In this document: positions 44,188 through 62,660 of the stretch, piece after piece
How positions within the stretch are numbered: the first letter of the stretch is position 1
Layout of the letters: the number at the start of each line of letters is the position of its first letter
Assembly: GCA_965645245.1 (NCBI GenBank)
Contig: OZ287068.1
Location: 2,418,001 to 2,482,000 of the forward strand
From: Massalongia carnosa
Lineage: Eukaryota
Direction of reading: 5' to 3'
Length of the DNA: 64,000 nucleotides
Made by a program: the position numbers and the translations under genes
Notes under the pieces: generated by a model
The model's database searches: none
The model's input: the letters and a program-made list of their open reading frames with translations, nothing else
Told to the model about the DNA's origin: nothing

Positions 44188-44653
44188 GTTGGGAGGGGGA
44201 TTTTTGGATATTTAAGGACAGAATAATACGGTGTCCAGAAGTCTTGATTTAGGGATGGATGGGGATGGAAATACTGGTTGGATGAGAAAACGGCTGATAA
44301 TACGTATACGATGACATAGGTGGAGAAAAATGGAGATGCTATGTAAGGTATTTTTGGCTGTCATTGGGAAAGACTTATTCCGTAGTGAGTTAGTTTATCA
44401 AACATAATTAACAGCAGTGGTCAGAAGTGCGCAGTTAACTAACTCAACGAATGAACGAATAATTATTTCTATTATCGTATATATATACACACATACATAC
44501 ATATAACTTTTCTAGGTATTTATTACTGCTATGTATGTACGTATGTATAGACAAGCGCGCATTTTTACATTTGTACGTAGATAGGGATAAAGAGAGGTAG
44601 GTAGGTAGCCAGAAACGGGGAGGACTAGTTATTGGGGAAGAAGCTTTAGTGAT

Positions 44654-45749
44654 GATGATGATGTATTCATACTCCAATATGTCACCGGCCGTAGGCCGGC
44701 CCATGCGGGCAAAGCTATCTAAGTTATGTTACATGGAAAACCTTTTTCAGGTGTAAAAACCATATCCCTTGATACCTGTCCGATGTGACACCGGGTCGAC
44801 GTCGGACAGGAGACGCAGAGCGAAAATATTGTGAGAACTGTGACGCCTTGTGAGATGGGAAGGAAAAGATAAGTGAAACTACTGTTGATTGTACAATAGT
44901 GTAGATGTCAGTGAGAAGTGGGTCAGTAGACCTGTTTTCATTAGTCAAGCAGTTAATATCTTTAGAGTTTTTGATGTTTCGGTTAGCTGTTGATAGTTGT
45001 TCGTGCCAGCGGCGCGAAACATCTGTTCTCTATTGTCAATAAGTCTACAGAACATGATTACGTGTTCTGGAGTTTGTCTGTGTCAGTCACATGGGCAGGC
45101 CGGTGAGGTGACGGCGGGGACCCGTCGCTGATAGAGGAAGTCAGCTAGACCGATCTTACCGGTGCGGATCTGTGTTGGCAGGGCGCTTTCTGTCTTTTTT
45201 AGCAGCGTGTGTGTTTTCAGTCGTTTTTTGTCCAGTGGGACTGATTGCGCTATGAAGGGTTCGGTGACGCGATTTTGATATGCGCTTCACGAGTCGTTTC
45301 AGAATTTCAGCTATCGTGCTTTAATTGTCCGCATTTGTTTTTGACGAGCCAACGCTGCTACGGAGACTTCGCGGTGGGGGGGGGGGGGGGGGGGGGGGTC
45401 GGACCATGGTGGGTGTGCTTTGGGTGGTTGAACGATTTTTGCGTCGATCAGTAGGTTTTTGGCTCAGGTGTGCTTCAGCTCTCTTGGAGTGGATTTTTGA
45501 AGGTGTTTGCGACCTGCCTTGCCTCGGAGTTTGTTAACTATTTTACTGCATGCGGAAGAAATGACCTTCGATTGACCTCCGGCTCGGAGTCGATGTCTGG
45601 CCTGCGCCTGTAAAGTGTCGAGGTGTACATCTATTGCTATGTATGTCTCTGCTTCAAGAACTGGAATGGGAGTGGCTTTAAAGGCACCGGTTGTGGTGCG
45701 AAGGCAGTTGTTATGCATAACGGAGAGCTTACTCGTTGACGTTTTTGAT
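44654..45749 (-). mobile_element. 5'-truncated Tad-like LINE copy
   Basis: Homologous to ~49822-50915, with a (CAT)n tail. 14-bp TSD GAAGCTTTAGTGAT at 44640-44653 and 45750-45763. Confidence 0.93.
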
Positions 45750-47104
45750 GAAGCTTTAGTGATAGAATCTAGGAAAGAAAGAATTTGACAATCGAAAAGA
45801 TAGCAATAACAATGGGGAAGTATAGATCTTTATTTTTTGATGACGGGGAGACCACTTCAAATATCTACACCTTTCGTTCACAATGTCTCTTATATATGGG
45901 GAGAGAGAGAGAGAGAGAGAAAGCCCTAGTCTATGATGAGTTATTAGATGAAGGCATTATTATTGTAGTTGGGTTTCCCGTTCATCTCTAGTTGCCGGTG
46001 GACTCGATCCTTTAGCGACCTGCTGCACAGGGGGAGACTTGGAGAAGAGGTTTCGAAGCTGTGGTAATACGGATTGTGGCCTGCTTCGCCACCGCTTAGG
46101 CCGGGTTGATGCGGAAGAGTGTAAATAAGGAGGGAGGGGCGAGAGATCCTCTCAGTTCTTATCTTTATTCTCCATTATTCTCGCTGATGGTCTCTGAGAC
46201 ATCTTTCTCTTTCTTCTCACGTTCTTCTTCCCGGTCGAATTAAAGACATTTTAATTTTTGTAATTTCTATCGGTTGCATTTCGGGGCTCAGCATCATTTT
46301 TGAATGGGTTCATTTTTGTGTTAACAGCTGGTCGCTTCGGGGAAGTTGTCGGTGGGTTCGTTCTAGGTTTTGAGGACACGTGATTATCAAAGAACCCCTG
46401 TGTTTGAAAGATGAGGAAGCGTGCGTCAAGGGAGGCAATGTCTTCTTTAGAGATTCATGCCCTCTCAGCGGCCAGTTTTCTTCTATCTTTCTTTACCAGA
46501 TCCAGATGTTTCTTTGCCGCCATTAAGTCCACATACAGTAGCCTGGTACTCGATCATCGATGTCTCGAGAGACGTGGAGGAGATTCATAAAGAAAACGGT
46601 TAGACTTGATGGTGAAGTGCTCAAGGAGATATTTCCTGCTCTTTGGCACGTGGAGCGAAGGACTCGTCATATCTTTACTAGCATAATGATATTATGGCTG
46701 AGTGAGTTTTTTTCGTTCAAGTTCAGTCGTGCTTCTTTCTGCACCAGCAGTACAAAAATTACCGATAAAGTCTCGGTTGCTGATCCCCTGCGCTTATTCA
46801 AACCCACAGCCATCTCAAACAGGTTGAAGGAAGCGTAGTATTGCTCAGGGAAAGGCTTCGCTGCGATGGAGCGCTATTGCAAGCCTATCATTGGTTCTTC
46901 GCATTGAAGCTCTATGACGACAATCATTTGCCCTGTGATGAGCAAATAGTGAGACAGTAGTGTTCGAGACGAAGAAACTTGATTTATGTAAAAGCTCTCT
47001 TGGATGAGCATCATCTCTCAAAAGTATCATGAGAATCCTACGTCGATAGCAGCCATGGAGGTGAACATCATCCGCGCTGCCGACATATCCAATGCCATTT
47101 GTGA

Positions 47105-49348
47105 TCAAATTGTCGGATCCATCTTCATTATGTTCATCATGTTGTCTTCGTCATTAAGCTCCTTCGCCCCTATTATTTGATTTCTCTTCCGATTTGGCGA
47201 CATCGGTAATAGAGCCGGTCAGATGGCCTTCAATATCTTAGCCCGCTCAAAGTCGATCACTACGACCCGCTTCGTCTCCTCATTCCAAAGTAAGTTCGAC
47301 ATTCGTATATCTCGGTGCAAAACCCCAGCTCCGTGAATGGCATTGACTGCGTGGACCAGGTCGGACGTCCACATCTGCCGCTCCGTGCCGTTGGGTATCC
47401 TGCTGCCATACAGACACTCTCCGGATCAGGACAAGAGCAACATGTGAATGATACAAATTCCTGCATCGTAGTAGTACGGTTTATTCAGGTCAATATTACC
47501 TAAACAGACTGGAACGTAAACTCCCTGGACTGTCATCAGCAGCCGATAGACCTCAGCTTCGTGTCGAAGGTCCTTCACAAAAGCCAGGACTGTCCCTTTG
47601 GCCAGTAGCGTGTATCCGTATGACGTCAGCGTGACCATGAAAAGAGCTCCTCGGGCGCCCTGCTTTCCCAACGGCTGACAAGCGTCACTTCGATTCTGCC
47701 GAAGCTGTACTTCCAGGAGCATCCGGAATTTCTCACCATCGAGCTGATGCCGATCGCCCTGATGCCATTTCTCGCAGTGGTTCGATAAATTCGGGCAACG
47801 ACGGTCAAGCGGTCCTCCTCGAGCCAGTCATTGCAAGCATGATTGCGTACAGAATGAACGTCTTTGGTCTCCGCGCGAGGAAGAATTTGCGCCTCGCGGA
47901 GGACGAGCACGCTGACTTCCTATGCCGCGTATGCGGCCTTGAGGTCGAGATGGAGTATCGTGTTGAAAAGATTCATCATCAGTCGGGGGGGGGGGGAGTC
48001 CTGGTCGTCATTGAAAGTAGTATTAGACACTGAACGACAAGAAACCTTCCTTGGGCGGAGACGTTGACGAATGGGAGATCGGACGAGAACGTCGAGGCTG
48101 TATGTTTGCGAACGATATTCACGGTGATTTTTCTGCAGTTTCTGGAGTTTCGGGGATTTCCTTGAGAATGGCGATATAATCCACCTCCCAGATTTCGAGT
48201 GCGTCTATGAGATCCTCACGCCATTCCCAATTTCCTTGAGCTGACTCAAGAGCAAGGATACTGAAGGCTAAGACTTGACTGATGGCAGTGCGATGCAGGT
48301 AATCATCAGTGCTTGTAAAATCTTCGTTCTGCGCGTTTACGTCCCTGTTGGGTTCGGCCAAGTGATAATAGGCTATCTTCACATTATCCTCCAGCTTGAT
48401 ATGAAGGAAAACGAAAGCCTCTCCCGTGGTGATATAACCATACTGAGTTCCGCTCCTAACCATGTAAGAAAAGGTCTGGGTCACGACGGCGGCCACCAGT
48501 CGTGACCGGCATGATATTCAAAATGGGTGACGGTGCCCTCTGGTCCCGGCATCCAGACCCAGTTGATAAAATGGTCTACCTCCATCTTGGCACGACCAGG
48601 GTGAAGGACCTGGCGCAGCACGGCGAGTGTGAGCTTGTGGGGTGGTTTGTACTCAACAACAAGGGCCGGCTTCCGAAGGCCCTCCACCGTAGTGTAGACA
48701 CAAATCTGATCTGGCCGGGGACGAGGTTTAGAAAGGACAGGATGGTGAGGCGTGGAAGGTTGCAGGTGTTGAGCTTCAAGCCTCTGGGCAACTTCCTCGG
48801 CGTCATCGCTCAAGGCATTCATATGATTATCAAATGTAATTCCTCCAGTCAGTCCAAACTCACTTTGCATGTCATCCAGGGACTGCAGATGTTCCACAAT
48901 TAGGGTAACCGGCGTTTCCACAACTTCTCGTTGAAGGTTCTGAAGGTCGTTCTCACTCGCCTGTTTCCGTGACGTCACTCTTGCACCAAGAGTCTTGATG
49001 AAATGGCTGCTTTCGAAGACTCTGGGCATGTTATCGAGTGGATAGAGGGAATAAAGCAGCTCTAAAGTTTCCTTGTGTTTCGAGAAAGTCTTCCCACGAA
49101 TGTAGATAGTCCGGACGGATTTTGGCCTTCGCATTGCTGGGATCTCCTTGAGTGCTTTGAGACTTGACAGTTTGAATGGATATCGACTTCGACAAATGTT
49201 CATGACAGAGATCAAGGTATTCGATAAGGGTGGTTTGGCGAAGGCCCCGTTGGCCTTCTTGTTCGCGCAGTTCTGCTCGTTCTCGCAGCTCTTGCTCTTC
49301 TCGCAACAGTTGCCTTAATTCCTCGAGCTCCAGCGAATGTCGTGCCAT
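47105..49348 (-). pseudogene. Spok-family (spore-killer-like) nuclease-kinase gene, disrupted
   Basis: Coiled coil, then TTLIEYLDLCH, nuclease RPDQICV...VEYKPPHK...TQTFSYM...YGYITTG, Cys cluster FCTQSCL...CPN..H, and kinase GKQGARG...AKGT...HEAEVY...LHRDIRMSNLLW...IDFERA. Frameshifts near 49075 and 48497. Stops at 48119, 47828, 47426 and 47219. Confidence 0.85.
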
Positions 49349-49821
49349 ATTTGGGGCTGTCTTGATTAAAAGGTTGTTTTTAAAATGTGAGGGCGGGTTT
49401 ATTGCCTCAGTTACGGCGGACCAAACCCTCATAACGAAAAATCTAACTGTGATGTGCTTTCTCTTAAACTTCAACAGATATTTTTCAAAACATGTCGTCA
49501 GCATTTATTAATTTAAGTTCATACAAATCATACATCACATTTTTATTGCAGCGACACTGTAATATGTCAGAAATAAAAAATCTTTCGTTTGAAAATCACT
49601 TCGTACAAATTACGCCGCGAAACCGGTTGGGTTTTCGCCTCAAAATTGCTTTTTCGCCATCGGTTTTTCTCGTCGGAAGTCGATTATTTTTGAAACTCGA
49701 GAAACAGAAAATAAACTAAAGATAACTGAATTCTGATAATTACGAATCTTCGACAATTGAAGATTTAAATGAAGCATGATGCTCAGACTATTGAAATAGG
49801 TATATGTCTATAGCTATATGA

Positions 49822-52800
49822 TGATGATGATGTATTCATACTCCGATATGACACCGGCCGTAGGCCGGCCCATGCGGGCAAAGCTACCTAAGTTATGTTA
49901 CTTGGAAAACCTTTCACAGGTGTAAAAACCATATCCCTTGATACCCGTCTGATGTGACTACGGGTCGACGTCGGGCGGGAGACGCAGTGCAAAAGACGTG
50001 TGGGAACTGTAATGCCTTGTAAAAAGAGAAGAAAGAAAGAAAGGTTCAACTATTGTTGATTGTACAATAATGTTGATGCTAGTGAGAACTGATTCAATAA
50101 GCCTGTTTTCATTAGCCAAGCAGTTAGTATCTTCAGAGTTTTTGATGATTCGGTCAGCTGCTGATAGTCGCTCGTGCCGGCGGCGCGAAACATCTGTTCT
50201 CTATTGTCAATAAGTCTGCAGAACATGATTACATGTTCTGGAGTTTGTCTGTGCCAGCCACATGAGCAGGCCGGTGAGGTGACGGAGGGCACCCGTCGCT
50301 TGTAGAGGAAGTCAGCTAACCCGATCTTGCTAGTGCGGATTTGTATTGTTAGAGCGCTTTCTGCCTTTTTTAGCAGCGTGTGTATTTCAGCCGTTTTTTG
50401 CTCAGTGGGACTGATTGTGCTATGGAGGGTTCGATGACGCGATTTTGATATGCGCACCACGAGTCGTTCCAGACCTTCATTTGTCGTGCTTTGATTGTTT
50501 GCATCTGCTTGTGTCGGGCCGTTGCCGCAACGGTAGCTTCGCGGTGCCACGCCGGGTAGACTTCGAACCATGGTGGGTGTGCCTTTGGTGGTTGAACTAT
50601 TATTGAGTCGATCAGTAGGCTTTTGGCCCAGATGTGTTTCAGCTCTCCCGGGGTGGGCTTTTGAAGTCATTTGCGACCTGCCTTGCCTCGAAGTTTGTCA
50701 GTTATTTTGTTGCATGCGGAGGAGATGATCTTCAATTGGCCTCCGGCTCGGAGCCGGTGCCTTGCCTGTGCTTGTAGCATGTCGAGATGCGTGTCTATGG
50801 GTGCTATGAATGTCTCTGCTTCTAGTACTGAGATGGGAGTGGCTTTAAAGGCACCGGCTATGGTGCGAAGGCAATTGTTTTGCATGACGGAGAGCTTGCT
50901 CGTTGACGTTTTTGACTTTTTGACTTCTTTGGGCATGTGCCATACGGTTGACCCATATGTCATGGCCGGACGCACCACGGCACTGTAAACTTGTCTTGGC
51001 TTGGCGAAGGTGGCACCCCAGGCTAATGTGGAAATTTTTATTAATGCCATGGATTGTTTGACCATTTTCTCTTGCGTTCTGCGAACGTGCGGTCCCCATT
51101 TCAATTTGGTGTCGATTTGTAGGCCCAATACTCTGATGTCCGTTTTTGGTTCAATTTCGGTGCTAGCAATATTGATGGATGCAGTCATGTTGAATCTTTT
51201 GGGATTTCTGGACAAGCGTATGAGTTCGTACTTCGTCGGAGCAAATACGGACGCGTGCCGGGAAGCCAACGTCTCACATTGTCTGTGTATTGCCTCTAGA
51301 GTTTTGCAGTTTTCCTAGGTGCTTTTTCCATATGCCAAAATGTTTGCGTCGTCTACGAATCCTATGGCACTTGTGTTTTTGCCTGGTCGATCACATATTT
51401 CCAATAGATCTGCATTGTAAAATAGGTAAAGAATGGATGACAGGGGAGAGCCCTGCGGGATACCCGTTCTTACCGCAAACCGCCCGGTGACTTTTCGATT
51501 TATTGCTAAGGTGGTGCTTCGATCGCTCAGAAAGCTGTTTAACCAGTCGGTGATCCATTTTGGAATTTTTCTTTTCCGTTGGTTGTGCGTTAGTCGTTGA
51601 TGTGATACCGTATCGAACGCGCCGGCAACGTCCATGCTTAGCAGTGTGGCTACTTTGTCTTTTCCCTGTCCCCAAATCGTGTGAACCTGTTCAGTTAGCA
51701 GTTCCAGTGCTGACTCTGGATCTGCCCTTCCTTGCTCCCATCTGTGTCGGGTAGGAGCCGGTGTGTTTCCGCTAGATAGGTTATTTTTGATCCAATGATG
51801 GATTCCATAACTTTACTGAGCGTGTTGAGCAGTGCAATTGGTCGGTAGGCTTTCGGCGTGGTATAGTCTCCTTTGCCTGTTTTTTTCAGCGCTATTGTGT
51901 TTACCATTTTGAAGGCCCGCGGGTGGTACGAGTGTGACGCACGCCTGAAACAGAGGTGTTAGTAGTTCGACAAGTTTTTCGCTGCATGCTTTGAGTATTC
52001 TGTTAGATATGCCGTCTGGGCCCGGTGCCTTATCGGACTTGAGTTGACTCAGGGCCGTCGATACTTCTGACTTGGTGATGATTATTGGGCAGTGCGGCGA
52101 TATAGGATAGAAGGATCCTTCTATGTCGCTTAGGTCGGCCGGTGGTGGTGCGGGAAAGAAGACACCTTTCAGCATTTCGGCTTTTTGGTCAAACGTGTCT
52201 GCTACTTGGTCATTGAATTTTAGCATCGGCATTTTGGATACTTCTCTAGATAGATGAATTTTGTCTTTGGCCCATTTCGCTAGCCGCCATAGTCCCTGAG
52301 GCGTTTCGGTGGCCTTACTGATTTCTTGACGAAAGTTTGTTCTCTTTGCCTTTTGAATGATTTTCTGTTTTTTATCACTGGATTTCATATAGTTAGACCA
52401 GTCCGTTAGGTCTAACGTGCTGGACCATATGCGGCGTAGTTTCCGTGTGGCTTTGGTGGCAATGCTGCATTCTTCTGTCCAGAATGGCTTAGCATATTCG
52501 CTAGATTTTGCCCATGGAACTGCTTCGTTGATGACATTTTGTAGAAATTTTTGAATCGATTCCGTGTACGCATCAATCTCGGCAGTGGTGCGGGGAGACT
52601 CCGGTATAGGGGCGTGTCGTTCGGCCTCCCTTAATTTTTCCAGGTTTAGAAGTTTCCATGCTCTGCGTTTGATTTTCGGTTGCGGCTCGCTTCCGAGTAG
52701 GATGCGGGTTGATATCGGTACGTGATCGGACGATTGATTCAATTCTGATCTGGACATGCAGTGTTCGAGTCTTTCGACTAGATATTCTGACATGAAAACC

Positions 52801-55285
52801 AAATCTATCGTGCTAGACGTGTTTCTTGCTTCCCATGTTACGGTGCCTTTCAGCAGTGTCAACGAAAGATTATGATCATCGATTATTTCTAGTAATTGAT
52901 CAGCAGCAGCGTGCTGTGTGGGTCTTGAGGGACCATTCCAAAAGGGATGATGCAGGTTGAAATCTCTAAGTAGTATGTGATGCGCATCGGCGGTAAGCAT
53001 GCTCCGAGCCGCCGGTAAGGTCGTGGGACTGTCAGTGGATGAATAGGAGGCGGGAGAGGGGTTATACACATTATGGACGTGAATTGTTTCCATAACGCCT
53101 TCGGTGTAGGTCTTTATTTTCAAAGTGCACATGTTGTCATGGTGCGAATAAGGATAATCTAGGAAAGGTAGTCACAAGAAGGTTGCTAAGATTGCTAAGC
53201 GATACCCCCGACATTTAGCGTCGCGGAGGTAGCGCATTGGGTTTAGCGGGAAGCTAACCTCATCAAGGTTAGTAAAGGGATCAAGGAGTTATAAGAAAAT
53301 CTCTGCAGCAATTGCTGCTTTCTTCTTTGTGTTCGTCTTGTTTAGCATAGCTATTAGCTAGCCATCAAGACCATCATCACCACCACTTGGGTAGGCCTTC
53401 TATTGCCCACCCGTTACACATGTCGGCCGAGGTGAATTCCACCTCCCAGCTGTCAGTGTCTATTAGGTTGTTGACATAAAAGCACACTCTGGTGTCACCT
53501 CCTGGGCGGTATAGGAGGTGAAAGCCGCTTTGATGAGAACTAAGCGATGTGGGGGCGGATGGATTGCGCCACGGTTCCTGTATTGCAATAATATCATAGT
53601 CCTGGGTGTTTGTGTCTGCTAAGAGGGGTATCATAGTACTCACTCTGTCATTTCTGACATTATACTGCAATATAGAGAGGGATTTTGTGTCCCTCATAGG
53701 AATTCCATCGTTTCGGCCGCTGTGTTCGATGTGACCTGAGTTCCTGCCGTTAATGCTACGGAATCTGCATGAGGCCTACCCAGCACTGGTTTTGCTAAGG
53801 CCTTTACCATATTTTCAGGATTCATGATGCCTATATTAGCCCAGGTGGGTGCGTCGTCTCCCCGATGAGGGCCCGGGGGTGTGCCGGATGAGGGCGTAGC
53901 GTTATGTATTTTCTTCTCTTGCTGTTTACTATCTTCCACGTTGACGGAATTTCGTCCGTTTGTGTGACTGTGGGTGTCGACTCTCGTTGAAGTTGAAATT
54001 GAATTGAGGGCGGTTGTGATTCGATTGCATAGAGGGGGGCGCGGTTTTGCATTGCTATTTCAGTTTTTCGCTTTTCAGCTTTTCAGACTTTGCATTCTGT
54101 GGACCATGCTTCGTGTCCCTTTTCTCCGCATACGGCGCAACGGCGATATTGCCCCGTTATCTCCAGATTGCATTCTTTGCTTTGATGTCCACCGGCGCAG
54201 TGACCACAGGCGGCGGGATTGCGGCATGATCTACCGATGTGTCCGTATTTTTGGCAGTTGAAGCATTGAGTCATGGTGCAACCACGTGTAAAGCGCTCGC
54301 AGTCATTTATTTCGTAGCTTTCCATTAGGCCCTCGGTGATGAGCCGGTTAGCCATCTCGGCGGTGGCGACCTCTATATGAAGCGTCGAGTACGCTTTTTT
54401 CTCTCTGATGGCCTTGATTGACCAGGCTACTTTGACGATCTTCAGGTTAGGGTGCAGGCGTGCGTTAGCGGCCTGAAGGTAGGTGATGGCTGTTGATTGA
54501 TTGGCCACTTTGATGTTTTCCACCCTGATTCCATTCGCTCTTACGGTGAAGGTGCGGGTGTGCACCGCAGCTGAAGCGGCCACCATGCGGGTCAAATCGG
54601 TCTTCTCCTGCAGGGTCTTCTTTGCTTCCAATGACTCTGCGTGAATCCTGATGTCGCCGTTTAACAAACGCGACACTCCCCTTATTCCTTCAGCTCCATT
54701 TTGTAGTGTTTCTACCAACTCCTTGGTTGGCATTAGCTTCATTTTTTCCTTGTCCGCATCCTCCGTGATGTGAACGGTGATTTCCCGGGCACGTCGCGCT
54801 TCTCTTGGTGTGGGTGCTTTGTCTTTGCGGGCCTGTTGAGGCTTGATGTTTTGGTTCTCTGGGGGTGCGGGCTCATCTCGGCCTTGCCCTATGGCAGCAG
54901 CGGCATAGCTGCGAGGAGTGGTCTCATTGCGCTCTATGCGTGTCAATGATTGTTGGATTGCCTGTAATGTGTCACCTATGTTGTTGGGAGTTTCTGCAAC
55001 TTTGTCATCGACTAGATTTTGCGCTTGCAAAATTTCTGCTGAGTTTCTCAGCAACTGCAACGCCTCCGGGTCACCAACGGTGCCCACTCGATCAAGATAC
55101 TCCTTGATCTTTACGTGCAAACCTTTCCTCCTTTCGCTGTGCGCTCTCGAGAGCGCGTTTGATTGTTCGAGTGTAGTTATTTTCCGATATCGTATATGTT
55201 CTTTCAGCTGCTTATGTCTTCATCAATAAGTGAACAGTTTAGTCAAAAAGTCTTTTGTTATTTGTCCCTTTTATCTATTTATGTG
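49822..55285 (-). mobile_element. Near full-length Tad-like LINE, inactivated
   Basis: ORF1 (~53694-55200) has three CCHC knuckles. ORF2 from ATG 53697 has an APE endonuclease (LQYNV, IAIQEPW, DFNLHHP, SDH), RT (KAPGPDG, YRPIALL, GIPQGSPLS, FVDD) and a C-terminal CCHC. (CAT)n tail. 9-bp TSD GCTATATGA at 49813-49821 and 55286-55294. Confidence 0.95.
53135..53418. mobile_element. Solo LTR (284 bp) inserted in LINE ORF2
   Basis: TG...CA ends (TGTCATGG...CCGTTACA). 5-bp TSD CATGT at 53130-53134 and 53419-53423. Removing it restores EFTSADMCTLKIK. Confidence 0.92.
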
Positions 55286-55398
55286 GCTATATGACTATGT
55301 AATAATAAGTGTACCTTCTGTTAAGCGAGGTGATCTTTATCTTGGGACTAGGCCTAATGTGGCTTCTACGGTTTCCTAGATGCTATGTTCATTGTACT

Positions 55399-55846
55399 TG
55401 TCATGAAATCGAACCAACCCGATCCAGAATCAATCCCGCAGATGAATCTGACTAAGCTCCCGTTCCTCTATTCAGCTTAGTCAGAATCTCATTAACTAAA
55501 TCGAGTTTAGACCCCTCTCAACGGCTTCAGGTCAAAGCTGTACCATCACCATCAAAGCGTACCAACGACAGGAGAACCTCATCTCCACCTTTTATCGTCA
55601 AACACCTCGTCAAACCTTCGTGCCGTACGTCTCCTAATAGGGGGAGATGAACACTGATCGAATCTTCATGCAAAGGGGTTCGAGACAAATATAAAAGGAA
55701 GGACAAGTTAATTAGATTGTTGACTCCTTGTCCGACGTCTTGTATAGCAATCCATCACCTAGCTATAGCCTTATTAATAAAGACATCTTGATCACCCAAT
55801 CCAATTCCTAGGAACATTAGTTCAATCCCCTGCCCAGTCCTTGACA
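55399..55846 (+). repeat. 5' LTR
   Basis: TGTCA...TGACA ends, TATAAAA at ~55690. No difference from the 3' LTR seen by eye. Confidence 0.97.
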
Positions 55847-55916
55847 TTACGTCGGACCTACATCGAAAGGTGCCTTTCATAGCACTAGCCCCTGTCCCCC
55901 CTCATATTCCACCATC

Positions 55917-57110
55917 ATGTCTTCGTCTTCAGAAGAGATGACCGTCCCCCAAAATCCTCTCATCGACGAGAACGTGAAGTTGTTTCAAAACCAGTTCCAA
56001 ACCAATCCTGAAGCATTCGTCGCGGAAATACGACGACTTCAAGACGAGGTGGCCCGGTTGCAGGCCGCCCCAGCTCCCGACCCCCCTATACCCACTCCAG
56101 CATCAACCTCGTCTCCCTCGTCCGTTCCGGCAATGGACCCTCAGATAGCTGCCCTCCTGCAGCTCCTTTTGACCCGGAATTCCGAGTCCAAAACCGATCT
56201 TCGTTCCGAAAAACTTCCCGACATCTCCGAGTACGATGGAGATGAAGCCAAGTTGGACTCCTGGGAACAGAGCCTGATTCAACGGATGCACGTTAATCAT
56301 GATCGATACTCCACCGATGCCTCCAAGATTGCATACGCGGAGAATCGGCTCACCATCGGGAAACGAGCTCACAACCTTATGAATGCGTATCGAGTGGATG
56401 GCATTTGTAGACTCACCACCTTCTCCGAATGGCGTTCTGCTCTTCGCCTAGCCTGCGGCAACCCCTTCGAACAAGAGGATGCCCGTAAGTACCTTCGAGA
56501 AACCCTCAAGCAGGGCTCTCTGAGTTTCGAAGAGTACAACACTCTCTTCTCTCAGAAAAAAGACCGATCCAGAATGGAAGACGCTTCGTTGATTGATGCC
56601 ATGAAGGCAAACATCAACTACTCCGTTCAAACAGCGGCCGTCCACTACCGAGTCCCCGGCACCAATCTGGAGCCAATCACCTTCGACGAGCACGTCGCAA
56701 TGTGGTTAAGCACGGACCGGAAAATCCGTCAGATCCGTCATCTGGCACCCAAGGCCACGACTCCGGCCACATCAGCTCCCGCCAATCGAAGAAACGGCAC
56801 CAACCTTCCTGCTGCCCCTTTCCCCCGCACTGTCGTCACGGGCACGGTCACCCCATTGATCCCAACCCCCGCCTTCCCCCCAGCTGGAGACCCCATGGAC
56901 CTAAGTCAGGCCATGGCGGCTGTCAAAGGTCAGTCGTTGAAAACCGAGGGAGTAAGGAAGATCTGCGAGAATTGGAACCTGTGCTTCTATTGCAAATTGC
57001 AACACCTCGGGTCGGCCTCCGACTGTCCAAATAAGCCTACCAAACGCCTTCGCAACATGGAAGTCGTCTCGACCCTCACTCCCGAGACTGACGACTCGGG
57101 AAACGTCTAG
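55917..57110 (+). CDS. gag: Gypsy Gag
   Basis: SEKLPDISEYDG, LKQGSLSFEEY, DPMDLS and a C-terminal CFYC...H...CP knuckle. Confidence 0.93.
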   Translation: MSSSSEEMTVPQNPLIDENVKLFQNQFQTNPEAFVAEIRRLQDEVARLQAAPAPDPPIPTPASTSSPSSVPAMDPQIAALLQLLLTRNSESKTDLRSEKLPDISEYDGDEAKLDSWEQSLIQRMHVNHDRYSTDASKIAYAENRLTIGKRAHNLMNAYRVDGICRLTTFSEWRSALRLACGNPFEQEDARKYLRETLKQGSLSFEEYNTLFSQKKDRSRMEDASLIDAMKANINYSVQTAAVHYRVPGTNLEPITFDEHVAMWLSTDRKIRQIRHLAPKATTPATSAPANRRNGTNLPAAPFPRTVVTGTVTPLIPTPAFPPAGDPMDLSQAMAAVKGQSLKTEGVRKICENWNLCFYCKLQHLGSASDCPNKPTKRLRNMEVVSTLTPETDDSGNV

Positions 57111-60100
57111 ACTCTGCGCATCGTCGCGCGCAGAGCCCTATTTTAATTTCTTCTTGTCTGTTAGCCAACTCGTTTTCTCCCCCCCTTCAATCAAACACTC
57201 GTTTTTCCGCAGCCTCCGCTTTGGAGCTGTTTGAAACCGAAGAAGCGTTTCGAGATAGCCACCTAGTGGTATCATGTATCTTACGTTTAGGTAGATCTCG
57301 AATTCAAGCTCTCAATCTGATTGATTGTGGTGCATCTGGCTATGCATTCATTGACAAGAAGTTTGCGCAAACTCACCAAATCCCCCTTCATCCCCTCAAA
57401 TACGCCCGACGCCTTGAAGGCTTCGACGGTCAGCCGGCTCTGACTGGAAATATCACTCATGTGGCCGAGGTAATCATGGACTTAAACGGACATGTAGAAA
57501 GATTATTCCTTTTCGTAACAGGACTGAAAACCTACCCCATCGTCCTGGGACACCCGTGGTTGCGACGACATCAAGCTCTCGCTGATTTCGAGTCCAACTC
57601 TCTCTCCCTGTCTTCCTCTTTCTGCCTGGCTCATTGTAGCCCTCATCCAGTCAAGGTGAAGGCCTACACGGGCGAGAAATTCCTATCTCCTGCGGAAAGT
57701 CAGGAAGTATGGGAATCGGAAAACTACTCGTCCAATAGTCAAATCCTGTCCGAAAAACCTGTCCTGTCCGATAAAACCACGCCGCGCGATAGTAAGACAA
57801 CTTCTCTCGAAAATCAGGACATCAGTCGTATCGAAAAAGCGATTGAACAGGGCGACTCACCGAAAATCCGATATCGAAGTCCCTCTTCGTATCGCACCTC
57901 CACTCAGCGACATGCTGCCCAGCAGAATCGCAATCCTCCTGTTTTGGACGTCTGTGAAATCGGCGCCCTCAACTTCAACTATCTCGGACGAAAAAAGAGT
58001 CACGAGATGTTTGCTCTCTCCTTGAAAGAAATCGATCACTTTCTCGGCCTGACTCAACCTGAACCTAAGCCTGAACCCAAACCCGAATCTCGCCTTCGTC
58101 AAGAGACTGACTGGGCACACTCGAAACCAACCTACCAACCCAACCCCCGGTCCAGCCCTAGTGAAAAGAAATATCACTTAGCCCTGTTCCGTATGAACCA
58201 GGCTCTGACACAGTTATGTTCAGTGACCGAACCCGAACCTCAACCCTTGACACTGCAATCATCAGTGACCGCCGAAGAACTGAACGCTTATCGTGAGCGA
58301 AAGAACGTCGACCCAGCCCCCCTTCTACCCAAACAGTATCACGACTTTCTGGATGTCTTCTCCAAAAAAGAATCGGACGTCCTGCCCGAACACCGACCCT
58401 ACGACCATGCCATAAAGCTAAAAGAAGGCTCTCCAATCCCGAATCAAGCTCTTTATGGCATGAGTCGAACCGAAATCGAAGAACTCCGACGCTACCTTGA
58501 TGAGAACCTGTCGAAAGGCTTCATCCGAGCTAGTAAATCCCCCGCTGCCTCCCCAGTCATGTTCGTAAAGAAGCCAGGAGGAGGACTTCGCTTCTGTGTC
58601 GACTATCGAGGCCTCAATGCCATCACGATTAAGAATCGGTATCCGCTTCCCCTGATCACCGAAACCCTGAATCGCCTGAGTCGGGCTAAGATATTCACCA
58701 AGCTGGACATTATTTCAGCGTTCAATCGGCTCCGCATCAAGGAAGGAGATGAAGAACTCACCGCATTCAGAACCCGTTTTGGCCTCTTCGAATCCCTGGT
58801 CCTACCATTCGGCCTCTGTAACGGCCCCGCCTCCTTTCAACACTTCATCAATGATACTCTTCGAGAGTATCTCGACGACTTTTGCACGGCCTATCTAGAT
58901 GACATTCTCATCTACAGCGAAATTGAAAGCGAGCATGAAATCCACGTCAAACGTATCCTCATCAAGCTGAGAGAAGCCGGGCTGCAAGTAGACATCACCA
59001 AATGCAAATTTCATGTCACAGAAGTTGCCTATCTCGGACTAATCGTAACCACCGAGGGAATCAAAATGGACCCCGCTAAAATCGAAACAGTAACTCATTG
59101 GCCAATACCGATCAATATGAAAGATGTACAAAGCTTTCTGGGATTTGCTAACTTCTATAGACGATTCGTATACGGCTTTAGTAAGATAGCCGGCCCACTG
59201 ACGAATCTAACCAAAAAGGAGGTCAGCTTTCAATGGACTGACAAATGTCAACAGGCATTCGAAACTCTAAAAAAAGCTTTCACCTCGGAACTAATACTGA
59301 TGCATTTCGATCCCGATCGTCCTATCATCGTGGAAACCGATGCTTCGGACTACGTCTCTGGTGGTATCCTTTCTCAGTATGACAACGAGAACGTGCTTCG
59401 CCCCATCGCATACTTCTCCAAGAAACACAACCCGGCCGAATGCAATTATGAGATCTATGACAAGGAACTCATGGCCATCGTCCGATGCTTCGAAGAATGG
59501 AGACCGGAATTGGAAGGTTCTGCTCACCCCATCAGCGTTATCTCAGATCATAAGAATTTGGAATACTTCGCTTCAACCAAACAACTCAGTCGTCGTCAAG
59601 CTCGCTGGTCCGAATTCTTATCCCGATTTGACTTTAAAATAGTCTATCGACCCGGAAAAGCTGGTGGAAAACCAGATGCACTGACTCGTCGCTCAGGAGA
59701 CCTCCCTAAAGAGGGGGATGAAACTGATGAAAGACATAAACATCAGCATCAAACCATCCTGAAAACTCATAACCTGGACGACGAAGTGGCGAAAAGTTTC
59801 TTATCCACGATTATCCTAGCCCCCGCGTTCATCGAACAGGATCCCGAGTCCGTTGAACATGATCACGAGTTCATTGAACCTGAACCACAGCTGGATCAGC
59901 CTGCCGACCAAACCAATCCTGGCCAAGACCCGACCGACGTCCCAACTCAGCTGTTATGGGAACAAGCTCTGGAACAGGATCAATTCTCTCTGAAAGTTCT
60001 AGACATGCTTCGCAATAATGTCAGATATCATAACGGCATTCAGCTAGCCGAATGTGAAGATAAAGAAGGGATTCTTTATTTTCGAAACCGTCGATACGTC

Positions 60101-61489
60101 CCCAATTCGGATCGGCTCCGTCTCCGTCTCATTCAACAGGCACACGACAGCGTAGCAGGTGGCCATCCCGGTCGTTCCAAATGCTACGAACTAATGAATC
60201 GATCATACTGGTGGCCCAGTATGCATCAAACCGTCAAACGATTCATTCGTAACTGTCACACCTGTAGACGATCCAAACCATCCCGCCAACGATACCAAGG
60301 ATGGCTACGCCCTCTGTCCCCACCCGAACGTCGATGGCGTGACGTTTCCATGGACTACGTAGGTCCGCTGCCTCCGAGCACCTTCATGGGTATAACCTAT
60401 CGTTATATCCTCGTCTTCATCGATCGCCTTTCCAAGATGCGACATTTCGTCCCCACCACCTCCATGGAGGTAGAAGAGGCTGCTAATTCCTTCTACCAAA
60501 ATGTATGGAAATTACACGGTCTCCCAGACGCCTTGATTTCGGATCGAGGCACCCAATTCACCTCCGATTTCTGGGACATCATGTGTAAACGGCTTAGAAT
60601 TGATGCTAGGCTATCAACCAGTTTTCATCCCGAGACAGATGGCCAAACCGAGAGGGCTAATGCAACCATGGAGCACTATCTTCGGGCATACGTCAATTAC
60701 ATGCAAGATGACTGGGCCCAGTACTTACCCGGTGCCGAATTCTCCAGCAATAACACCGACTCCTCCAGCATTCTCGCCTCTCCCTTCCTGGCTACTTATG
60801 GACAACACCCCAGGGTAGGATTCGAACCCGAAGGGCCCCTTCCGCAAGACCTGACCGCCCAGGGAATCGCTAACCTGATCGCCGCCAATCGATTCGTAGA
60901 CAAGATGCGAGACGTAGACACTCACCTACGAGAAGAGATGTTGATCGCGCAGGCCTCATACGAATCTTCCGCCAATGAGAACCGCCGTCCCTGTCCTCGT
61001 TATCTTGTAGGAGACATGGTATGGCTGAACACCCGAAATATCCAGACAGCCCGTCCGGCAGCCAAACTGGACGATCGAAATGTCGGTCCTTACCGAGTCT
61101 GTAAGGTGTTCGCCAACCCTCTTGTTGTTCAACTGGAACTCCCCGACACGGTTAAAATTCATCCGGTCTTTCATGTAAATCTGCTACAACACGACGCAGA
61201 CGACCCCCTCCCAGGACAAATTCCCGAGCTTCGCGACCCAATAATAGCCGAAGATGGACAGCGAGAATGGTATGTCAACAGCATTCTGAACTCGAAACTG
61301 GACAGACGTTATCAACCTCCGCTTCTCAAGTATTTCGTCAACTGGGAAGGACATACCCCCACCTGGGAGCCATTTCACCTACTAACCAACTGTCAACAAG
61401 CTCTGGACGAATTCCACGAAGCCTATCCTGGTGCATCCGGCCCACATCTCACCCCCTGTTCCATTCCTCGATGTCGCTGTCATGAATAA
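57101..61489 (+). CDS. pol: Gypsy Pol (protease, RT, RNase H, integrase, chromodomain), in the -1 frame to gag
   Basis: LIDCGA, LRFCVDYRGLN, YLDDILIYS, ETDASD, integrase H-H-C-C and D,D(35)E region, chromodomain WYVNSIL...VNWEGHTPTWEP. Frame is open back to 57101. Confidence 0.97.
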   Translation, partial: KRLDSAHRRAQSPILISSCLLANSFSPPLQSNTRFSAASALELFETEEAFRDSHLVVSCILRLGRSRIQALNLIDCGASGYAFIDKKFAQTHQIPLHPLKYARRLEGFDGQPALTGNITHVAEVIMDLNGHVERLFLFVTGLKTYPIVLGHPWLRRHQALADFESNSLSLSSSFCLAHCSPHPVKVKAYTGEKFLSPAESQEVWESENYSSNSQILSEKPVLSDKTTPRDSKTTSLENQDISRIEKAIEQGDSPKIRYRSPSSYRTSTQRHAAQQNRNPPVLDVCEIGALNFNYLGRKKSHEMFALSLKEIDHFLGLTQPEPKPEPKPESRLRQETDWAHSKPTYQPNPRSSPSEKKYHLALFRMNQALTQLCSVTEPEPQPLTLQSSVTAEELNAYRERKNVDPAPLLPKQYHDFLDVFSKKESDVLPEHRPYDHAIKLKEGSPIPNQALYGMSRTEIEELRRYLDENLSKGFIRASKSPAASPVMFVKKPGGGLRFCVDYRGLNAITIKNRYPLPLITETLNRLSRAKIFTKLDIISAFNRLRIKEGDEELTAFRTRFGLFESLVLPFGLCNGPASFQHFINDTLREYLDDFCTAYLDDILIYSEIESEHEIHVKRILIKLREAGLQVDITKCKFHVTEVAYLGLIVTTEGIKMDPAKIETVTHWPIPINMKDVQSFLGFANFYRRFVYGFSKIAGPLTNLTKKEVSFQWTDKCQQAFETLKKAFTSELILMHFDPDRPIIVETDASDYVSGGILSQYDNENVLRPIAYFSKKHNPAECNYEIYDKELMAIVRCFEEWRPELEGSAHPISVISDHKNLEYFASTKQLSRRQARWSEFLSRFDFKIVYRPGKAGGKPDALTRRSGDLPKEGDETDERHKHQHQTILKTHNLDDEVAKSFLSTIILAPAFIEQDPESVEHDHEFIEPEPQLDQPADQTNPGQDPTDVPTQLLWEQALEQDQFSLKVLDMLRNNVRYHNGIQLAECEDKEGILYFRNRRYVPNSDRLRLRLIQQAHDSVAGGHPGRSKCYELMNRSYWWPSMHQTVKRFIRNCHTCRRSKPSRQRYQGWLRPLSPPERRWRDVSMDYVGPLPPSTFMGITYRYILVFIDRLSKMRHFVPTTSMEVEEAANSFYQNVWKLHGLPDALISDRGTQFTSDFWDIMCKRLRIDARLSTSFHPETDGQTERANATMEHYLRAYVNYMQDDWAQYLPGAEFSSNNTDSSSILASPFLATYGQHPRVGFEPEGPLPQDLTAQGIANLIAANRFVDKMRDVDTHLREEMLIAQASYESSANENRRPCPRYLVGDMVWLNTRNIQTARPAAKLDDRNVGPYRVCKVFANPLVVQLELPDTVKIHPVFHVNLLQHDADDPLPGQIPELRDPIIAEDGQREWYVNSILNSKLDRRYQPPLLKYFVNWEGHTPTWEPFHLLTNCQQALDEFHEAYPGASGPHLTPCSIPRCRCHE

Positions 61490-61529
61490 AACTGCTTCGC
61501 AGGAGCTCAGCTCTTGAAAGGGGAGCTAC

Positions 61530-61977
61530 TGTCATGAAATCGAACCAACCCGATCCAGAATCAATCCCGCAGATGAATCTGACTAAGCTCCCGTTCCTCT
61601 ATTCAGCTTAGTCAGAATCTCATTAACTAAATCGAGTTTAGACCCCTCTCAACGGCTTCAGGTCAAAGCTGTACCATCACCATCAAAGCGTACCAACGAC
61701 AGGAGAACCTCATCTCCACCTTTTATCGTCAAACACCTCGTCAAACCTTCGTGCCGTACGTCTCCTAATAGGGGGAGATGAACACTGATCGAATCTTCAT
61801 GCAAAGGGGTTCGAGACAAATATAAAAGGAAGGACAAGTTAATTAGATTGTTGACTCCTTGTCCGACGTCTTGTATAGCAATCCATCACCTAGCTATAGC
61901 CTTATTAATAAAGACATCTTGATCACCCAATCCAATTCCTAGGAACATTAGTTCAATCCCCTGCCCAGTCCTTGACA
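61530..61977 (+). repeat. 3' LTR
   Basis: Direct repeat of 55399-55846. Confidence 0.97.
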
Positions 61978-62660
61978 GTACTGATAGGAGTTGGATATTC
62001 AACACAGACTGTATTCGACGTGTTTCAAGAATTAAAGAAAACATATAACGAGAATGTTAAACAATTAAATCAAATCATCGACAAGATTGAAAATTTTCAG
62101 AAAAAATTGGATCAACTGAACGTAATGAATGTTCAGATTAGATTAGATCAGTTCCAGTCTAACCGTATCGGTTACTTATGACCTTTAGCGGTGTCTTAAG
62201 CAGCCTAGGCTCGGATAAACTATTATCACTTCGCTTAGTAGAGGGTGACCACTTAAAAGGAGAAAACTGCTTCATAGCAACTCTTCATCTTATACATTAG
62301 GGTCATACACATTGTCATTTATTACATAGCCATATAGTCATAGTCATATACCTATTTCAACAGAACGCGATAGTTAGTAGAATATCAGAAGAAAATGCTG
62401 AAAAAAGCACGACGTTTGATTTTCGAGACTGTTAATTATCCTCCAACCCTTTATAGGTGTAGCGCAGCCCTGCGAGCCTTGGCGCGCTAGTAGACAAATC
62501 TCGAAACTTTCGCACTTTGTAGCTAGCACTAGAAATTGCATTCGTTACCCATACAAGCCCTCAATAGTCATTGCGATCACGTAGAATTGCTCCCCGACTC
62601 TGTAGCTATCTTGGCCGAAAGTTATATCGTCCCTTCTGTTGTGGCTGCATTGTGGCAACC

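Follow-up and report, generated by a model that had tools for sequence, protein, structure and literature searches.

Anatomy of the locus

The window analyzed here is a 64,000-nucleotide stretch, G000:C2:2418001-2482000. An intronless Spok-family pseudogene comprising a coiled coil, a PD-(D/E)XK nuclease, a Cys cluster and a kinase lies on its minus strand at 49348-47027. The features of this copy are as follows.

47027..49348, minus strand: Spok-family pseudogene, entire former coding region (read through with an X for each of the 8 breaks, 774 positions; the present frame has 105 codons)
49235..49348, minus strand: short N-terminal coiled-coil-like helix (58% E/K/R/Q over the first 40 residues; a long helix in the model of an intact relative)
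48790..49234, minus strand, limits approximate: Spok domain 1 region with TTLxEYL, ENDL and FDNH motifs (contains the first frameshift near 49074; residues 3-185 33% identical to FOXG_17087, E 2e-30)
48150..48720, minus strand, limits approximate: PD-(D/E)XK nuclease domain with RPDQICVY, EYKPPHK and QTFSY (= QxxxY) (41% identical to FOXG_17087, E 4e-36; frameshift near 48507 inside)
47860..48149, minus strand: disordered linker (frameshifts near 48122 and 47998; pLDDT <50 at residues 442-509 of the intact relative)
47715..47859, minus strand: Cys cluster C-x3-C-x13-C-x5-H-x9-H (premature stop 47830 within the x13 spacer)
47190..47714, minus strand: kinase domain with GARG loop, AKG lysine, HRDIRMSN and DFE (47% identical to FOXG_17087, E 6e-50; premature stops 47428 and 47221)

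Six-frame translation placed the ATG at 49348 and the original stop at 47029-47027. A first-pass annotation had named the coiled coil, nuclease (EYKPPHK), Cys cluster and kinase (HRD, N, DFE), and all were recovered on the minus strand in the order it gave. Its start, 49348, coincides with the ATG, but its end, 47105, marks only the last of the four premature stops, and the frame continues to the original stop.

The N-terminal sequence LEELRQLLREE is found at 49327-49295, and on the same strand are the nuclease motifs RPDQICVY (48717-48694), EYKPPHK (48654-48634) and QTFSY (48478-48464), the Cys-cluster motifs CTQSC (47851-47837) and CPNLSNH (47797-47777), and the kinase motifs GARGALF (47659-47639), HRDIRMSN (47317-47294) and IDFER (47257-47243). 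The kinase matched the Pfam families Pkinase (E 5.5e-9) and Kdo (E 4.6e-7). In the Cys cluster, C-x3-C-x13-C-x5-H is exact and the last spacer is x9, compared with x7 in the Spok definition; the three Cys and both His are invariant across 135 aligned homologues. The window copy is collinear with its sister copy on contig C14 and with the reference proteins, with no intron-sized gaps, indicating an intronless gene, and nine paralogues are single open frames. A link with the Crinkler-type nuclease-kinase effectors is possible.

The model of an intact relative, P0243 (mean pLDDT 85), showed a helix at residues 2-49 at the N-terminus, the disordered linker and a kinase fold. Structure searches with this full-length model gave kinases only, and the kinase fold was matched at Z 13.6. 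The N-terminal, nuclease half was modeled on the intact paralogue on contig C13 rather than on the broken copy (pLDDT 89.8). Its best match was the BpuSI restriction endonuclease (Z 9.7, rmsd 3.8, 154 aligned), a mitoribosomal protein ranked second (Z 8.4), and the other PD-(D/E)XK matches included DrdV (Z 7.4), EcoR124I HsdR (Z 6.5) and Vibrio vulnificus HsdR 3h1t (Z 6.5, rmsd 3.3, 123 aligned); these VIA Z values are moderate, and Foldseek returned no match for the nuclease half at E 0.001 or better. The V. vulnificus HsdR is named in PMC6660238 as the best HHpred match of SPOK3.

Membership in the Spok family

A tblastn search of the region with FuSpok1 yielded three collinear matches (214, 106 and 40 bits; E 4e-89), while the best score among 100 base shuffles of the region was 24.3 bits. 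The read-through window copy was 35-37% identical over about 700-750 residues to FPOAC1_003985 (FuSpok1), FOXG_12586 and FOXG_17087 (E 4e-116 to 6e-131), which are reference Spoks in Supplementary Table 2 of PMC12693581; according to the same source, FuSpok1 is toxic in yeast once its kinase is disabled. Against FOXG_17087, identity was 33%, 41% and 47% for the N-terminal, nuclease and kinase regions listed above and 39% for the Cys cluster (E 6e-11), whereas the linker alone matched weakly. The proposed Spok assignment is thus upheld domain by domain, and the similarity extends through the N-terminal, nuclease and Cys regions rather than being limited to the kinase. Across its own Cys cluster, FuSpok1 is read in the wrong frame in the database model, in line with an error described in PMC12693581, so that region was anchored by the other reference proteins. 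Nearly all homologue matches carried the precomputed, nameless family PF27653.

In a quick-search, unrooted tree of 83 rows built without Podospora sequences, the window and C14 copies fell in a 16-row clade (SH-aLRT 96) whose named members are lichens, apart from the FuSpok1 clade. With respect to the Podospora-type clade II (Vogan et al. 2019), the lineage in this tree lies outside the clade of FuSpok1 and Polytolypa. Podospora SPOK sequences were absent among the best 120 matches of each protein search. The 14 closest intact relatives are 772-811 residues long; 13 fit all six motif patterns and the remaining one fits five, and the lineage is kept intact in other lichens at 60-70% identity. 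Spok homologues and pseudogenes across ascomycetes, including among repeats in Fusarium, are already in print, and the window copy is, as judged by its sequence, an additional member of this known family.

Breaks and decay

The four frameshifts of the window copy, mapped against the sister copy, lie near 49074, 48507, 48122 and 47998 (C run), and the four premature stops are in codons starting at 47830, 47428, 47221 and 47107. These counts agree with the first-pass view that the catalytic motifs survive among several stops and frameshifts. With its first break at codon 92, the gene yields only a 105-aa stub. No open frame spanning nuclease and kinase is present in the window copy, as the frame ends after 105 codons, and a stub without nuclease or kinase would neither kill nor protect.

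Contigs over 45760-49810 were obtained from four of nine listed runs (X1, X2, X4 and X5), one per sample and from three studies; X1 may be the source sample. These contigs collapse variants and are unphased, their depth is not equivalent to copy number, and 52 substitutions and 15 loose ends stand outside the tally. At position 49072, a sister-type form at about half depth accompanied the window-type form in all four runs, so the first frameshift of the window copy is present in each sample. At position 48505, both forms were found side by side at about half depth in three of the four. The X2 contigs did not cover the unique left flank at 45760-46847, and such a hole in contigs proves nothing. 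Two additional single-base losses were seen in X2, at 48160 and 47985. In X5, one low-depth contig with sister-type letters departs from the gene at window position 48494, inside the nuclease domain, perhaps reflecting an independent insertion.

These data bear on whether the gene is really intact, with breaks that reflect faulty assembly or overlooked introns. For Spok genes, both false introns and recurring long-read errors have been documented, and one break falls in a C run; however, there are eight separate breaks, the relatives are collinear without intron-sized gaps, and independent contigs carry both forms at 49072 and 48505. For the window copy, assembly error and hidden introns are refuted by the contigs of the other runs, and we assign this reading practically no probability.

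Over the 768 codons compared, the window and C14 copies differ by 25 silent and 51 residue-changing differences, giving a pairwise dN/dS of 0.57. The changes were polarized with the 14 intact relatives, and nine of the 51 differing codons were ambiguous and were dropped. Of the 42 polarizable amino-acid changes, 31 fell on the window branch and 11 on the C14 branch (p 0.003); the window copy has thus been dead longer than the C14 copy. RIP was rejected as the cause of decay, with indices of 0.53 and 1.25 and no signature. Two of the four premature stops of the window copy are C-to-T changes at CpG.

The sister copy on contig C14

The segment shared by the two copies is as follows.

46928..49406, no strand assigned: segment common to the window and the sister copy (versus G000:C14:1715689-1718175, 95.9% identical over 2.49 kb)

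A DDE transposon is located 58 bp upstream of the ATG of the sister copy, flanked by a 5-bp target duplication with one mismatch, and about 20 further matching bases follow beyond it. The shared segment carries a 5-base repeat at each end, which was considered as an element end and rejected, since the upstream end is the transposon insertion in the sister copy. The element (L019:6176-7492) is a 1.3-kb DDE_3 transposon with inverted ends of about 70 bp and about 20 copies at 97-99% identity; six other copies are flanked by 5-bp target duplications (one mismatched), not by TA. The target duplication of Tc1/mariner elements is TA. Directly upstream of the sister copy, two inverted, 96% identical gene regions with an NDC10_II domain (L019:7521-9673 and L049:507-2661) were found, which we take to be Crypton-like.

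The sister copy is broken by a single 1-bp frameshift within the nuclease, corresponding to 48552, which leaves 288 residues. This frameshift was seen at half depth in X1 and X4 and is therefore real. In X2 it accounted for 0 of 55 depth, in a run where a sister-type contig occurs at 48505 and two contigs cross 49444, upstream of the transposon site. The X2 data suggest that the sister copy may be open in that sample. In X5 the frameshift was found in 0 of 9.5, yet only the window-type form was present at that site.

Copies in the genome and the poison-antidote model

PMC6660238 describes the nuclease Lys as necessary for killing, and both the kinase Asp and the Cys cluster as necessary for resistance. 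There, a protein truncated to residues 1-490 is toxic, and one toxic kinase mutant escaped by acquiring a stop at codon 282. Spok killing works through DNA damage, as described in PMC9972908. In the tested Spoks of the literature, protection comes from the Cys cluster and kinase of that very protein, in cis as well as in trans, with the result that nuclei or spores lacking the gene die. According to PMC12693581, four of six Fusarium homologues were inert in yeast though their motifs were conserved; motifs are therefore no guarantee of toxicity.

Given the domain order, motifs, folds, breaks and copy census observed here, we consider it likely that a single-gene poison-antidote of the Spok family lies dead at this locus; its ancestor would have worked in this way, and other full-frame members of the family may still do so. 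Against this explanation, the lineage forms a clade separate from FuSpok1 and is only 35-38% identical in sequence to the tested Spoks.

Four protein searches converged on at least 18 Spok-like loci in the 52-Mb, 25-contig genome, belonging to four to six lineages. The host is probably a lichen-forming ascomycete: the named homologues closest to the window copy come from lichens, and 62% of the sampled words occur in a run labelled as a lichen metagenome. The 11 tree rows from this genome fell into six groups, at least four of which are forced by strong branches, with between-group identities of about 26-50%. Uninterrupted frames of 727-833 codons were found at nine of the 18 loci, bearing out the earlier expectation of intact paralogues elsewhere. 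Eight of these carry every motif, except for one QxxxY variant (QAYSD, C16:311k), and the ninth lacks the Cys cluster. Contig C16 holds a cluster of four copies.

The other nine loci are broken, and an intact nuclease is missing from all of them. Broken copies offer a test of the poison-antidote model from sequence alone: the nuclease is expected always to be lost first. In all six full-length broken copies, the first break precedes the end of the nuclease (codon 92 in the window copy, 266 in C14, 239 in C5, 107 in C16:860k and 133 in C18, and an 895-bp insertion at 321 in C16:362k), and three partial copies likewise have no intact nuclease. For the six full-length copies, this pattern has a p of about 0.19 under random placement and is not significant; it is consistent with the poison-antidote model and is no proof of it.

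The C19:1430k copy (L021:3860-6118), which is 98% DNA-identical to the C5 copy, has lost its entire Cys cluster to a 219-bp in-frame deletion bounded by two KHGD repeats, but keeps the nuclease and kinase motifs. Such a copy should be toxic unless it is silent or is rescued by relatives that are 93-95% identical, and it counts against the poison-antidote model. Two remnants on contig C3, at about 122 kb (L046:3493-5037) and 2428 kb (L047:3986-4513), have lost the nuclease core and keep the kinase side; the former lies just downstream of a copia element and is open over 515 codons. Their sequences make resistance-only alleles possible.

Coiled-coil length changes in frame among the paralogues. 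The copies fit published Spok behavior in their variable coiled-coil length, high copy number, pseudogenes and repeat-rich flanks. A locus on contig C20 (L031:4149-6984) begins like a Spok, but with a coiled-coil repeat of 7 residues that runs very long; it is cut inside the nuclease and present as an inverted partial duplication. On contig C1, an intact Spok paralogue is immediately preceded, on its own strand, by an HNH_2 endonuclease gene (L024:2472-3599).

The census also bears on an alternative in which the genes are Spoks by descent but the lichen lineage never drove: they would encode a regulated nuclease-kinase serving the host, in non-self cell death or defense against intruding nuclei, and the window copy would be a decayed redundant duplicate. 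Co-option of a native function is raised in PMC12693581, though deemed unlikely there, and four of the six genes were inert; in addition, the lineage has been kept intact at 60-70% identity in other lichens, and a TPR-repeat gene adjoins one intact copy. The 18 loci in four to six deep lineages, half of them broken, with recent duplications at 93-99% identity and mostly near transposons, instead describe a birth-and-death pattern more typical of selfish genes, and both copies of the window lineage are dispensable in this genome. We regard a host function as unlikely and favor the poison-antidote reading.

The transposon island and carriage

The transposon island that houses the window copy spans about 21 kb of a 3.6-Mb contig and is bordered by core genes, with ERG4/ERG24 and dienelactone hydrolase genes on the left flank and ordinary genes on the right. 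From left to right, the island consists of a LINE remnant, about 1 kb of single-copy DNA, the Spok copy, the broken LINE and the young Ty3/gypsy element listed below, a piece resembling LINE ORF1 and, just outside the window, a hAT fragment.

44642..45748, minus strand: LINE 3' remnant (84% identical to the LINE end at 49812-50915)
49812..55300, minus strand, right end approximate: broken LINE (endonuclease and reverse transcriptase pieces)
55399..61981, plus strand: young Ty3/gypsy LTR retrotransposon (LTRs 99.8% identical, open pol frame)

The transposon island of the first-pass annotation is therefore real and made up of identifiable elements. Its suggestion that the gene travelled with or accumulated among transposable elements stands only in part: no terminal repeats or target duplications bounding the window copy were found and no Starship captain is near, so the data support only that the copy lies among such elements. 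An ankyrin-repeat gene (L042:3743-4591) just right of the window adjoins the hAT fragment at the island's right edge. A 60-bp element at window positions 49611-49670 has 115 candidate matches in the genome (40 scored, at 86-94% identity) and is probably a transposon end or MITE.

Spoks are known as Starship cargo (PMC9156397). Starship carriage of the window copy was rejected: the sole DUF3435 captain found on contig C2, in a search that gives a lower bound, is at 807-808 kb, 1.6 Mb away, and core genes flank the island on both sides. Among the other Spok loci, only C20:1072k has a captain no more than about 300 kb away and is on its cargo side. About 20 DUF3435 loci occur across the genome, several in near-identical sets, for example on C11, C13 and C19. 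A Pfam transposon domain was confirmed in the 10-kb stretch around 11 of the 17 other Spok loci, in a check of one ORF per locus for most loci and none at C1. Two of four neighboring stretches also had such a domain, and enrichment of Spok loci beside transposons is therefore not claimed.

The genomic setting bears on a second alternative, a vegetative addiction module that guards repeat-rich regions or nuclei against loss, with the same biochemistry as a meiotic spore killer and a different site of action. For Fusarium, bioRxiv 10.64898/2026.10.04.756499 reports a spok that acts through hyphal fusion and curbs the loss of a dispensable chromosome; in the present genome, four copies are clustered on contig C16. 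The window copy, in contrast, lies in a small island flanked by core genes, and its 3.6-Mb contig is not an evident accessory chromosome. Vegetative addiction is conceivable, if somewhat doubtful, and has a better chance than a host function.

Proposed history and significance

Under the favored explanation, a dead poison-antidote Spok, the ancestor of the window copy would have been a working Spok that duplicated to give the window and C14 copies, now 4% apart. The break that first killed the window copy probably lay ahead of the nuclease or inside it; no other first hit would be safe, since losing only the antidote is toxic. The copy would then have decayed through ordinary point mutation and slippage, not RIP, with the later breaks neutral, and persists today as an inert remnant in a transposon-rich patch. 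Other full-frame members of the family may still act as toxin-antidote genes.

The dead copy alone matters little; its value is as a pointer to the 18-locus family and to intact homologues in many lichens. The family census and the possibly polymorphic sister locus carry more weight. A literature search, with mostly open-access coverage, turned up no work on Spoks from lichen fungi, and such homologues may be listed in the supplements to broad surveys. We tentatively raise the possibility that lichen-forming fungi hold a diverse arsenal of active Spok poison-antidotes. This genome might then display their whole life cycle: eight complete copies of several deep lineages, fresh duplicates, nine nuclease-disarmed copies, kinase-bearing remnants as possible resistance-only suppressors, and a sister locus that may segregate working and dead alleles between thalli. 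If so, spore killing or nuclear competition would become testable in lichens, and if the intact Spoks kill, selfish drive would have a bearing on the fertility of lichens, on thalli of mixed genotype and on the turnover of genomes.

Comparison with known systems

Compared by description with Podospora SPOK1-4 (PMC6660238 and PMC9972908), the window copy has the published anatomy of a coiled coil, domain 1, a PD-(D/E)XK nuclease with QxxxY, a Cys cluster and a kinase. As for SPOK3 (PMC6660238), V. vulnificus HsdR is a structural neighbor of the nuclease half, here in the model of the C13 paralogue. Unlike SPOK1-4, the last Cys-cluster spacer is x9, not x7, and no Starship was found here.

With FuSpok1, the window copy shares an identical RPDQICVY and EYKPPHKLT, and PDQ...EYK and QTFSY align. 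Like FuSpok1, FOXG_17087 and FOXG_12586, as described in PMC12693581, it is a single-exon gene of a multicopy family in repeat-rich regions. Unlike FuSpok1 and the other FuSpoks, it belongs to a separate clade, has a much shorter coiled coil, is broken at eight places and resides in what is apparently a lichen fungus instead of Fusarium.

The closest named relatives are OEA41_006350 of Lepraria neglecta (66% identity) and MMC19_001469 of Ptychographa xylographoides (61%), which match over the full length and fall in the same clade (SH-aLRT 96). Unlike the window copy, both are uninterrupted, and they are annotated merely as hypothetical or kinase-domain proteins.
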